Made by a program: the position numbers and the translations under genes. A stretch of 59,261 nucleotides of DNA from Gemmatimonadota bacterium (GTDB taxonomy: Bacteria; Gemmatimonadota; Gemmatimonadetes; Gemmatimonadales; GWC2-71-9). The number at the start of each line of letters is the position of its first letter. The first letter of the stretch is position 1. Shown here one piece after another: positions 8,478 to 43,892 of this stretch. Below the pieces are notes generated by a model. That model was given only the letters and a program-made list of their open reading frames with translations. It ran no database searches and was not told the origin of the DNA. The stretch spans positions 1-59,261 of the forward strand of contig JBDHDE010000033.1 of assembly GCA_039591655.1 (NCBI GenBank), written 5' to 3'.

Positions 8478-8888
8478 CTAGGGACCCTCGTACACCACGT
8501 AGTTGCGGGGCGTCTCCCACAGGGTGAGCCGTGCCAGCTCACCTGGGAGGCGCCCTTCGAGCAGCCGCCAGATGACCACGACGAGGTTCTCGGTCGTGGG
8601 GTTGAGGTCGCGGAACTCCGGCACATCGAGGTTCAGGTTCTTGTGGTCCAGGTAGGCCACGACGCGCTCCACGACGACCTGTTTGACCGAGTCCAGGCTC
8701 GCCACGAATCCCGTCACCGGATCCACCTCACCGCGCACCGAGACCTCGAGCTCGTAGTTGTGGCCGTGGTAGTTGGGATTGTTGCAGCGCCCGAACACCT
8801 TGCGATTGTCCTCGTCGGATAGGGCAGGGCTGTGCAGCCGGTGCGCCGCGTTGAAGTGCACCCGGCGGGTGACGGTCACGGTGGGCAT
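8478..8888 (-). CDS. 6-pyruvoyl/6-carboxy-tetrahydropterin synthase (PTPS/QueD family, CX5HGH type)
   Basis: FNAAHRL, CNNPNYHGHNY, LDHKNLN, TTEN, LWETP. Confidence 0.92.
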   Translation of the reverse strand: MPTVTVTRRVHFNAAHRLHSPALSDEDNRKVFGRCNNPNYHGHNYELEVSVRGEVDPVTGFVASLDSVKQVVVERVVAYLDHKNLNLDVPEFRDLNPTTENLVVVIWRLLEGRLPGELARLTLWETPRNYVVYEGP

Positions 8889-8948
8889 GGGTGGTAGTTA
8901 GGCGCCGCGTGGCGGCGGCGTCAACCACTCTGCGCCCGGGGGTGTGCC

Positions 8949-9161
8949 TCACCGCCGCGCCCTGAAGAAAGCCCGTCGCTCGTGGGAGGGACCTACCTCC
9001 GCGAACTGCAGTTCGCCAGGCCTCCCTGAAGGCCAGCCTCTATCGCAAACGGTCTCCCTCCATTTACGAGCTGCTCTCGCAACGCGCTGCACTGACGTTC
9101 GCTCCGGCAGGTCCCTCACGACTCGCTCGACCACCAAGAGGCACACCCCCTCGCCCTCCAC
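8949..9161 (-). CDS. Possible small hypothetical protein (70 aa)
   Basis: Fills an otherwise empty gap; TAGAAT -10-like box on the - strand at 9194-9189; no recognisable motif. Confidence 0.3.
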   Translation of the reverse strand: MEGEGVCLLVVERVVRDLPERTSVQRVARAARKWRETVCDRGWPSGRPGELQFAEVGPSHERRAFFRARR

Positions 9162-9175
9162 CTGGCGCCAGTCCG

Positions 9176-9204
9176 TTGACCCACACCTATTCTATTGCTA
9201 CTAT
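9176..9204 (+). promoter_or_regulatory. Sigma70 promoter with extended -10 for the NlpC/P60 and AhpD-like genes
   Basis: TTGACC (9176-9181), 17 nt spacer, TG-c-TACTAT (9196-9204) in an AT-rich patch. Confidence 0.7.
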
Positions 9205-9218
9205 TGGAGTTACACTAC

Positions 9219-10235
9219 GTGACCACCCTCCGGCTCTCGCGCGGCGCGGTGCTCCTCGGAGCGCTCGTCCTCCCCGGCGCCTCCGTCCTCGAGGCTCAGG
9301 GCGGAGGGCTCGACATCACCTACGGGCGGTGGTGGCACGACTCGTCGGCGTCCAGCGTCACCGTCGCGGCTTCCTATCACAACCGTCTCTTTGGACCCTT
9401 CGATTACGGACTGGGGATCTTCCACCTCGACGACAGCCGCTCGCCGGTCGACCGCTCCCTGAGCGGTCTCGAAGTGTCCCTCGCCGTGGGGCGCGCCGGC
9501 GGGGGACTGTACCTCGTGGGGTCCGTGGACCTCGGCATGCGGCACGACAATGGCAGCCTGGATGCCATCTGGAGCGCAGGGGCCGGCTACGGCCTCAGCG
9601 TGCTCAGCTTCATTCAGCTGGGGGTGGAGGCCCGCTACCGGATCGAGGATCAGTCGGTCGGAGGGTTCTGGCGGGTGGCTCCCGGAGAGCGACGGGGATT
9701 CTCGCTCCAGGCACGCCTCGCTCTGGGGCTCCCCGGGGGTCGCGGCGGGAGTACTCGGCCGCCCCCGGGACCGACGTTCACGCCCCCCTCCGAGACCGAG
9801 ATCTCGGATGCCGCCCACGGGGGCGGCGTGACGAATGAGTCCGCCGATTTGAGCGTGCAGGTGGTCCAGACCGCGCTGGATGTCATGGGGACCCCCTATC
9901 AATGGGGCGGCAGCGACGAGAACGGCTACGACTGTTCCGGGCTGATCCAGTACGCCTACGGCGAGCACGGCATCCTGCTGCCCCGGGTGAGCCGCGGCCA
10001 GGTCCGCACGGGAACCCTGATCGAGAAGGACGTGGCGGCGCTGCTCCCCGGGGACATCCTCGGATTCTCCATCAACGGCGGCGGCGTGAGCCACGTGGGG
10101 TTGTACGTGGGCCAGGGAACGTTCATCCACAGCGCGTCCAGCGGCGGCGTCAAGCTCTCGGGCCTCACTGGGGGCGACCCCGAAAGCCGCTGGTGGCGCC
10201 AGCGGTGGGTCGTGGCCCGCAGGATCCTGAACTGA
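9219..10235 (+). CDS. NlpC/P60 (C40) peptidase with N-terminal outer-membrane beta-barrel-like domain
   Basis: GTPYQWGG, GYDCSGLIQYAY, SHVGLYVG, FIHS; signal peptide, alternating beta-strands, Pro/Gly linker. Confidence 0.88.
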   Translation: MTTLRLSRGAVLLGALVLPGASVLEAQGGGLDITYGRWWHDSSASSVTVAASYHNRLFGPFDYGLGIFHLDDSRSPVDRSLSGLEVSLAVGRAGGGLYLVGSVDLGMRHDNGSLDAIWSAGAGYGLSVLSFIQLGVEARYRIEDQSVGGFWRVAPGERRGFSLQARLALGLPGGRGGSTRPPPGPTFTPPSETEISDAAHGGGVTNESADLSVQVVQTALDVMGTPYQWGGSDENGYDCSGLIQYAYGEHGILLPRVSRGQVRTGTLIEKDVAALLPGDILGFSINGGGVSHVGLYVGQGTFIHSASSGGVKLSGLTGGDPESRWWRQRWVVARRILN

Positions 10236-10237
10236 GC

Positions 10238-10810
10238 ATGCCCTGGATCGAGTGGATCCCCGAGCACGAGGCAACCGGCAGCCTCAAGGAGCTGTACGAC
10301 CGGTACACCGGTCGCTTCGGGGTCGACCACATTCTCAAGATCCACTCGCTCAACCCCGAGTCGCTGGAGGGACACCACCGGTACTACGACCACATCATGC
10401 GGGGGCCGTCAGGGCTGTCCCGCGCCGAGCGCGAGATGATCGCAGTCGTCGTGTCCGCCGCCAACGACTGCTTCTACTGAGTGCGCCACCACGGGGCGGC
10501 GCTCCGTCGGCACATGAAGGACGAGGAGAAGGTCGGGGCCATCGAGTCCGACTACCGCGGTGCGGCGCTGTCCCAGCGCGAGCGCGCCATCTGTGACTAC
10601 GCAGTGAAGCTCACCATGACCCCGCAAGAGATGGAAGAACGAGACGTCCATGCGCTGCGGGGTGCGGGACTGACCGATGCCGAGATCCTCGACACCTGCC
10701 AGATCACCGCGTACTACAACTACGTGAACCGCATGGCCGACGGTCTGGGCGTCGAGCTGGAGGAGTACTGGGAGCGCGTGGAGCGCTCCCGGCCGGTGCC
10801 GCCCCGCTAG
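10238..10810 (+). CDS. AhpD/CMD-like peroxidase-related protein, probable selenoprotein (TGA 10478-10480 = Sec, C78-F-Y-U81)
   Basis: Two same-frame ORFs abut at one TGA; joined sequence LSRAEREMIAVVVSAANDCFY(U)VRHH...NYVNRMADGLGV matches the AhpD CxxCxxxH core; SECIS-like hairpin follows; selC is in the window. Confidence 0.88.
10481..10513 (+). promoter_or_regulatory. Putative bacterial SECIS element
   Basis: Upper stem ACGGGGC (10491-97)/GCTCCGT (10501-07), GGC apical loop 17 nt after UGA; lower stem GTGC/GCAC. Confidence 0.7.
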
Positions 10811-10860
10811 GCTCCGGCCGCCGGCTCGGCCGCCGTTTGGACCCCCCCCGCTCCCTCCCC

Positions 10861-10890
10861 TTGACACCGGTCGGGACCACTATCTATCAT
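10861..10890 (+). promoter_or_regulatory. Sigma70 promoter of groESL
   Basis: TTGACA (10861-66), 18 nt spacer, TATCAT (10885-90). Confidence 0.75.
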
Positions 10891-10898
10891 TCTAACTG

Positions 10899-10925
10899 TT
10901 AGCACTCTAAGTGGGGGAGTGCTAC
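10899..10925 (+). promoter_or_regulatory. CIRCE element (HrcA operator)
   Basis: TTAGCACTC-N9-GAGTGCTAC, one mismatch to consensus, just downstream of the groESL promoter. Confidence 0.95.
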
Positions 10926-10976
10926 TCGTCCGTAACAAACTATTCCACAAAGACTTACGTATAGGAGACATCTGCT

Positions 10977-11291
10977 ATGGCTCCTGCCACGAAGAGCAAG
11001 GCGAAGCTGAAGATCCAGCCCCTGGGCGACCGCGTGGTCGTCCGTCCGCTGGAGGAGGCCGAGGAGATGCGCGGCGGCCTCTACATCCCCGACACGGCCA
11101 AGGAGAAGCCGCTGCAGGGCGAGATCGTCGCGGCCGGACCGGGCCGCTTCGAGAAGGGCGCCCGGGTCCCCATGGAGGTGAAGGTCGGACAGAAGGTGCT
11201 CTACTCGAAGTACGCCGGCACCGACGTCCGCATCGGCGACGACGAGGTCCTCATCATCAAGGAATCCGACGTCCTCGCCATCATCGAGTAG
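10977..11291 (+). CDS. groES: Co-chaperonin GroES
   Basis: IQPLGDRVVV, GGLYIPDTAKEKP, KYAGT, ESDVLAI. Confidence 0.98.
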   Translation: MAPATKSKAKLKIQPLGDRVVVRPLEEAEEMRGGLYIPDTAKEKPLQGEIVAAGPGRFEKGARVPMEVKVGQKVLYSKYAGTDVRIGDDEVLIIKESDVLAIIE

Positions 11292-11311
11292 CGAGGAGGA
11301 GGTTGAACTGA

Positions 11312-12949
<1,638 letters not shown>

Positions 12950-43795: not shown

Positions 43796-43892
43796 GGGGG
43801 CGGATCGGGCCTGGTGGCCCGTACGGTCTTCAAAACCGCTGGGAGGCGCCTGAGGCGGCTCCGGTGGGTTCGATTCCCACACGCTCCCGCCA
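43796..43892 (+). tRNA. selC: tRNA-Sec (anticodon UCA)
   Basis: Acceptor GGGGGCG/CGCTCCC plus GCCA; 6-bp D stem CGGGCC/GGCCCG with 4-nt loop; anticodon loop CTTCAAA (TCA 43830-32); long variable arm; T arm GTGGG-TTCGATT-CCCAC. Confidence 0.95.

Follow-up and report, generated by a model that had tools for sequence, protein, structure and literature searches.

The present study analyzes a stretch of 59,261 nucleotides from a Gemmatimonadota genome (the window, meaning the stretch at its full length) and identifies in it one conserved gene that open reading frame calling divides at an in-frame TGA. This TGA, at codon 81, is very likely decoded as selenocysteine, and we hold with high confidence that the product is a 190-residue AhpD-like protein of the TIGR01926 family, likely a cytoplasmic thiol/selenol oxidoreductase in antioxidant defence. 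On the plus strand the frame runs for 190 codons from the ATG at 10238 to a TAG at 10808-10810, its sole internal stop being the TGA, around which the read-through text is AANDCFY-U-VRHHG. A mechanical list of open reading frames gives two pieces instead, 9902-10480 and 10481-10810. An earlier note, made from the letters, had claimed that the halves share a frame and meet at this single TGA, that the ATG lies 2 nt past the stop of an NlpC/P60 gene (TGA 10233-10235), that a stem-loop with a G-first loop follows the UGA by 17 nt, and that selC lies in the window; all its coordinates are correct and the split selenoprotein gene is confirmed as observed. Its further proposal of a 190-aa selenocysteine protein is supported by the frame, by conservation of UGA and hairpin, by the selenocysteine machinery, and by family membership, all of them read from sequence. 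Features are collected in Table 1.

Table 1. Features of the selenoprotein gene and its surroundings, in window positions.
Feature	Position	Strand	Basis or detail
Sigma70-like site before NlpC/P60	9176..9204	+	consensus match only
NlpC/P60 gene, upstream	9219..10235	+	PF00877 84.8 bits; hydrophobic N-terminus; C-H-H motifs
AhpD-like (TIGR01926, CMD/PF02627) selenoprotein gene (predicted)	10238..10810	+	190 aa; motif C78-F-Y-U81-x-x-x-H85
Relay-residue codons E66, C78, Y80, U81, H85 (AhpD-type)	10433..10492	+	homologue alignment; AhpD spacing
In-frame TGA, predicted Sec81, second position of CxxC	10478..10480	+	homologous loci, PDB homologues
Extended hairpin including predicted lower stem	10481..10515	+	minimum-energy fold, UGA+40 nt
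bSECIS upper stem-loop	10491..10507	+	7 bp, GGC loop 10498-10500, 17 nt after UGA
Sigma70-like site (10861-10890) and, from 10899, CIRCE-like inverted repeat, both before groES	10861..10925	+	outside selenoprotein gene
tRNA-Sec (selC), anticodon TCA	43796..43892	+	RF01852 77.6 bits vs 47

Homologous loci were pooled from the genome itself, its relatives, and database matches, giving 135. Column 81 is covered by 125 distinct loci, and the remaining 10 were duplicates, missed the column, or gave no match; the pool is skewed to close relatives, one source being the best 80 matches. Among the matches listed, TGA stands at codon 81 in 120 of the 125 distinct loci and TGC or TGT in five, with TAA, TAG, and TGG in none. 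The loci closest to the window gene are, among the same matches, titled Gemmatimonadota, and the TGA loci extend to Chloroflexota, Acidobacteriota, and Bacillus records; their terminal stops are TGA in 57, TAG in 43, and TAA in 20. Across 61 genomes (our own and 60 relatives) 37 match the selenoprotein, and a 201-genome sample of the phylum gave strong matches in 79 genomes, most with one TGA, so far as sequence goes showing the predicted selenocysteine form to be the rule across that sample. Contigs from four sequencing runs carry no other letter at 10478-10480, neither TGC nor TGT, which the earlier note had named as contrary evidence, being found there; an identical contig, which comes from the study of the possible source, covers the site comfortably, and a contig from a different study begins 3 nt before it. 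No RNA run was listed among those that carry the window DNA. Five Bacillus and Pseudalkalibacillus records (L085, L093, L094, L100, L119) have the same TGA gene with a near-identical hairpin, and selA was present in all three tested. Locus L023 (genome G001) has a second in-frame TGA at codon 21 and a weaker hairpin (GCG loop region); this copy may be decaying, or the assembly may be in error there.

The upper stem of the hairpin (10491-10497 with 10501-10507) has a predicted energy of -9.0 kcal/mol, and together with the lower stem it forms the minimum-energy fold of the UGA plus 40 nt, at -17.1 kcal/mol. Rules for bSECIS elements given in a passage of PMC13188914 call for a loop of 3-9 nt, a stem of 4-16 bp, G in the first two loop positions, spacing of 16-37 nt, and an energy of -7.5 or lower; the hairpin, checked with our own script in place of bSECISearch, falls within all of these (3 nt, 7 bp, GGC, 17 nt, -9.0), as the earlier note anticipated. 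Against shuffles, folding energy gave no signal over five stretches of this GC-rich DNA (z between -0.22 and +0.67), and the hairpin is absent from the best fold in three of the five. Of 1730 long frames in the genome that end in TGA, 134 satisfy the same rule and 77 have an energy of -9.0 or lower (9 of the 1730 when the spacing is held to 16-18 nt). An Rfam scan of the window matched tRNA-Sec only, with no SECIS model reaching its gathering score. Judging from the alignments, it is through conservation and not energy that the hairpin stands above chance, and it is apparently under selection. A pairing test on 16 sequences (15 distinct), from which four distant sequences pairing in a shifted register had been dropped out of 20, found 96.2% of 105 cells paired in the distinct sequences, compared with 36-53% in slid controls and with none of 500 shuffles reaching this level, and two stem pairs carry compensatory changes. 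Pairing is 78.9% once the four distant sequences are included, and RNAalifold on all 20 recovered only three pairs at an energy near zero, partly because those four pair in the shifted register. Codons 85-90, which carry the stem, show the least synonymous divergence of 169 six-codon windows in 11 close orthologues (0.084 vs 0.395 overall). Among the matches listed, a rule-fitting hairpin at -5 kcal/mol or lower follows the TGA in 110 of 120 loci and occurs in none of the five Cys loci; an unbulged stem at the -7.5 threshold is found in only 53 of the 120. Two Chloroflexota loci (L115, L128; HHARNL) have the TGA without the 17-nt hairpin, their best hairpin being at 28 nt, and selA is present in both genomes; L028 and L030 have a different hairpin, at 24 nt.

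The machinery for selenocysteine insertion, for which the earlier note had looked to selA, selB, and selD, is all present: in a profile search of the genome these three genes score above their cut-offs on three other contigs, and selD carries a TGA of its own. The gene selA occurs in each of the 22 relative genomes with a TGA locus, and in 55 of the 61 genomes, so that co-occurrence within the order discriminates little. Among ten genomes picked by locus, their completeness unstated, selA is present in all eight with TGA (one shared with the 22 relatives) and in neither of the two with a close Cys homologue; genome G054, 85% complete, is without selA and has a weak match with two TGA. Two other CMD-family TGA genes in the genome are followed by hairpins of 7 bp with a 3-nt G-first loop, at 18 and 20 nt. 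One of these is a second AhpD/CMD CxxU gene, with CRY-U-LASH, TGA 14299, and the hairpin at 20 nt. It shares the region G000:C52:13976-16802 (minus strand; L045, L157) with a peroxiredoxin-like gene with TPG-U (TGA 16679), which lies some 2 kb upstream of it; between the two, thioredoxin reductase-like and metallo-beta-lactamase-fold-like frames were recognized by eye, and this is a better redox context than that of the window gene. Downstream of the peroxiredoxin-like TGA, a search for an unbulged hairpin fitting the rules found none. The other is a short CMD gene with CYP-U and the hairpin at 18 nt (G000:C20:44201-44407, minus strand; L047), and this gene and a second peroxiredoxin-like gene with TPG-U (G000:C15:22476-22871, plus strand; L158) are probable additional selenoproteins of the genome.

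Profile scans and structure modelling were run on the read-through protein with Cys substituted for Sec. The protein scores 170.6 bits against TIGR01926 (cut-off 81.8) over residues 2-173, its N- and C-halves matching profile positions 1-81 and 85-174, and falls below the cut-offs of TIGR00777 for canonical AhpD (20.6 vs 191.95), NF041238 AhpD_rel_CFYUT (62.2 vs 175), and NF053654 for YciW-related proteins (27.9 vs 310). The earlier description as an AhpD-like peroxidase accordingly stands as to AhpD-like and not as to canonical AhpD, while the word peroxidase is carried over from Cys homologues. The AlphaFold model (pLDDT 95.5) places residue 81 within helix 79-93 and has as its top PDB match 6K40, the AhpD-like DR1765 of D. 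radiodurans (TM 0.87, 38% identity). Solved homologues 6K40 (E 7.8e-35), 2PFX, and 2OYO align across the TGA with Cys opposite, so that, as the earlier note expected, homology lies on both sides and homologues carry Cys or TGA at residue 81. Alignment, model, and fold search agree on an all-helical AhpD fold with the relay of Glu, Cys, Tyr/His, Cys/Sec, and His. In the best 120 of 1427 database homologues E66, Y80, and H85 are invariant and C78 is found in 119; at column 81 there are 94 with C, 23 with W, 2 with G, and 1 with R. Since TGG is absent from this position in all the DNA loci, we infer that the W and G entries reflect TGA translated with code tables 4/25. The Trp-bearing proteins (P0002, P0006, P0007, P0010, and 19 others), many of which continue with HHGAGL or HHGEGL as in the TGA loci, probably arise where gene callers, given short contigs, switch to table 4.

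It could be that the TGA is a true stop between separate proteins of 80 and 109 residues, since codon 82 of the window gene is GTG, directly after the TGA, the public collection entry is an 80-aa N-terminal fragment only, in a 36-member cluster, and the C-half by itself exceeds the TIGR01926 cut-off (89 vs 81.8). This would not account for a break that falls at a conserved Cys and, in the predicted model, mid helix, for a stop that is always TGA and never TAA or TAG, or for a hairpin under apparent selection. Moreover, among the matches listed only 29 of 120 TGA loci have ATG or GTG as codon 82, which counts against a split gene and makes separate expression of the halves, the contrary outcome raised in the earlier note, unlikely; we regard two proteins as very improbable. 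That the TGA stems from a sequencing error or a recent nonsense mutation, or is read as Trp or Gly in this organism, deserves still less credence. The W and G residues in database proteins would favor recoding, but the TGA is common to 120 loci among the matches listed, none of the 125 DNA loci has TGG, the three Trp codons of the gene are all TGG, the four sequencing runs agree at the site, and the adjoining NlpC/P60 gene ends in TGA here and in TAG or TAA in close relatives. Error, mutation, and recoding are largely refuted by the contigs, the loci, and these NlpC/P60 stops.

With selenocysteine as the preferred reading of codon 81, the known bacterial pathway would have Sec-tRNA (selC charged via SelA, with selenium from SelD) and SelB bind the G-first hairpin 17 nt downstream, the SelB complex delivering Sec at UGA81. 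By analogy with AhpD homologues, Sec81, aided by the Glu66-His85 relay and Tyr80, would then attack a peroxide or a partner disulfide such as that of an oxidised peroxiredoxin, Cys78 would resolve the Sec81 intermediate to a selenenylsulfide, and a lipoyl or thioredoxin-type donor would re-reduce it. The spacing E66/C78/Y80/U81/H85 equals that of E118/C130/H132/C133/H137 in M. tuberculosis AhpD. A passage of PMC3141380 gives this relay, with Tyr at the third place in PA0269, and a section of PMC6300522 gives the relay residues for Deinococcus. Which cysteine attacks appears to vary: as far as an excerpt of PMC6626918 goes, the second Cys of M. tuberculosis AhpD attacks AhpC and the first matters more in B. 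thailandensis, and sestrin retains the first Cys only, in the portion of PMC4674687 concerned with it. Sec at the second position would fit the M. tuberculosis model of attack. Deletion of DR1765, the closest solved relative, led to greater H2O2 sensitivity and both Cys matter, according to a passage of a review (PMC8945050). Given Sec insertion, a cytoplasmic reductase of peroxides or oxidised peroxiredoxins is, on the strength of these analogies, the probable function. No ahpC partner lies beside the window gene, and none of the nine PF00578 matches in the genome is on the window contig. Our literature search found no 75Se work on AhpD-like selenoproteins and nothing relevant on peroxidase activity of selenocysteine AhpD.

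The NlpC/P60 gene upstream has an alternative in-frame start, TTG at 9195. The N-terminus of its product is hydrophobic (KD 2.25) and that of the selenoprotein is not (0.20), so that the former protein looks exported and the latter cytoplasmic by these predictions. A promoter-like site before NlpC/P60 and the lack of any terminator-like site in 8800-11400, a scan of little weight since 0.8 were expected, make the co-transcription of the two genes proposed in the earlier note plausible. Downstream, the sigma70-like site before groES matches 11 of 12 positions, and the inverted repeat before groES-groEL, which we take to be CIRCE-like, suggests possible HrcA control of these genes. Within flanks of up to 1.5 kb, the 22 largest neighbour clusters of the 120 TGA loci include NlpC/P60, GroES/GroEL, and a frame resembling QueD in the close clade, with unnamed frames outside it, and none of them was recognized, by inspection rather than Pfam, as a recurring redox partner.

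These surroundings might function as one unit, with the selenoprotein protecting the catalytic Cys of the peptidase or the chaperonin, a case made by the 2-nt gap, the promoter-like site with no terminator-like site after it, and an NlpC/P60 gene no more than 1.5 kb away in 22 of the 24 loci whose identity is at least 60%. We consider such a unit quite improbable, for among the matches listed NlpC/P60 occurs in 0 of 96 TGA loci below 60% identity (flanks up to 1.5 kb), the spacing to the selenoprotein varies from overlap to more than 45 nt, the hydrophobic N-terminus of NlpC/P60 alone points to probably different compartments, and a separate promoter-like site and CIRCE-like repeat serve groES. 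A functional link with NlpC/P60 appears doubtful because this neighbour is confined to close Gemmatimonadota relatives and the predicted compartments differ, and our search found no literature linking NlpC to selenocysteine AhpD; that the gene sits with NlpC/P60 on one side and groESL on the other likely reflects a gene order particular to the lineage rather than a functional module. A different alternative keeps the selenoprotein and changes its substrate. Bmp8 is a debrominase with the AhpD fold, and the selenol could likewise reduce another electrophile such as a carbon-halogen bond, which we think unlikely; that the widespread CxxU subfamily as a whole is a selenol-dependent reductive dehalogenase acting on sediment haloaromatics, and not an antioxidant, is a good deal less likely again. 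If true, the subfamily would be the selenium counterpart of Bmp8 and would parallel, in bacteria, the Sec deiodinases. Bmp8 is indeed among the fold matches (6OHJ, TM 0.75; profile E 4.6e-7), the metagenomes in which the window DNA is best represented come from marine sediment and sediment, the selenoprotein gene has no peroxiredoxin gene beside it, and peroxidase activity is weak in the AhpD-like relatives so far tested, at least as a passage on PA0269 (PMC3141380) reports. Identity to Bmp8 is, however, 15-16% (TM 0.71-0.75) compared with 38% to DR1765, which does not indicate a close relationship, the CxxU subfamily spans many phyla with varied neighbours among the matches listed, and no halogenase or bmp-like genes were seen beside the window gene. 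Reduction of peroxides or oxidised peroxiredoxins is the function we continue to favor.

The main value of the finding is an annotation fix, in that public collections carry only the 80-residue N-terminal fragment and some relatives appear in databases with Trp at the Sec position. In addition, the 120 aligned loci offer a clean, covarying example of a bSECIS element. As a test case for the biochemistry of the AhpD-like selenoprotein family the window gene offers nothing beyond its many relatives, some of them in cultured Bacillus strains. Papers on Gemmatimonadota selenoproteins found in our literature search do not, by their listings, deal with the window gene.

Several known systems bear comparison. 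DR1765 (6K40), 2PFX, 2OYO, 3C1L, and 2PRR share the fold (TM 0.81-0.87), the length, and the E-x11-C-x-Y-C-x3-H site with the window protein at 30-38% identity, but have Cys at the second position where the latter has predicted Sec. M. tuberculosis AhpD (TIGR00777), the mechanism model, has the same helix-turn-helix site and relay-residue spacing, whereas its motif lies in a different part of the chain and its His132 is Tyr in the window protein. NF041238 also combines the AhpD fold with CxxU, and its name shares the letters CFYU, but it is a 357-position model against which the window protein scores below cut-off, as it does against the YciW-related (seleno)proteins of NF053654, again an AhpD fold with CxxU. 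Closest are the AhpD-like CxxU selenoproteins (COG2128/TIGR01926), known since 2005 from 27 Sargasso Sea sequences in a passage of PMC1088965, counted as 299 'AhpD-like 1' sequences in part of the GOS survey (PMC2398784), and entered as 'AhpD-like protein, TIGR01926, CxxU' in an excerpt of a 2026 review (PMC13188914). Because family and motif are thus already published, the window gene is an ordinary further member: likened to them by published descriptions, it shares the family model, CxxU, a single Sec, and bSECIS geometry, and differs only in host lineage and neighbourhood.
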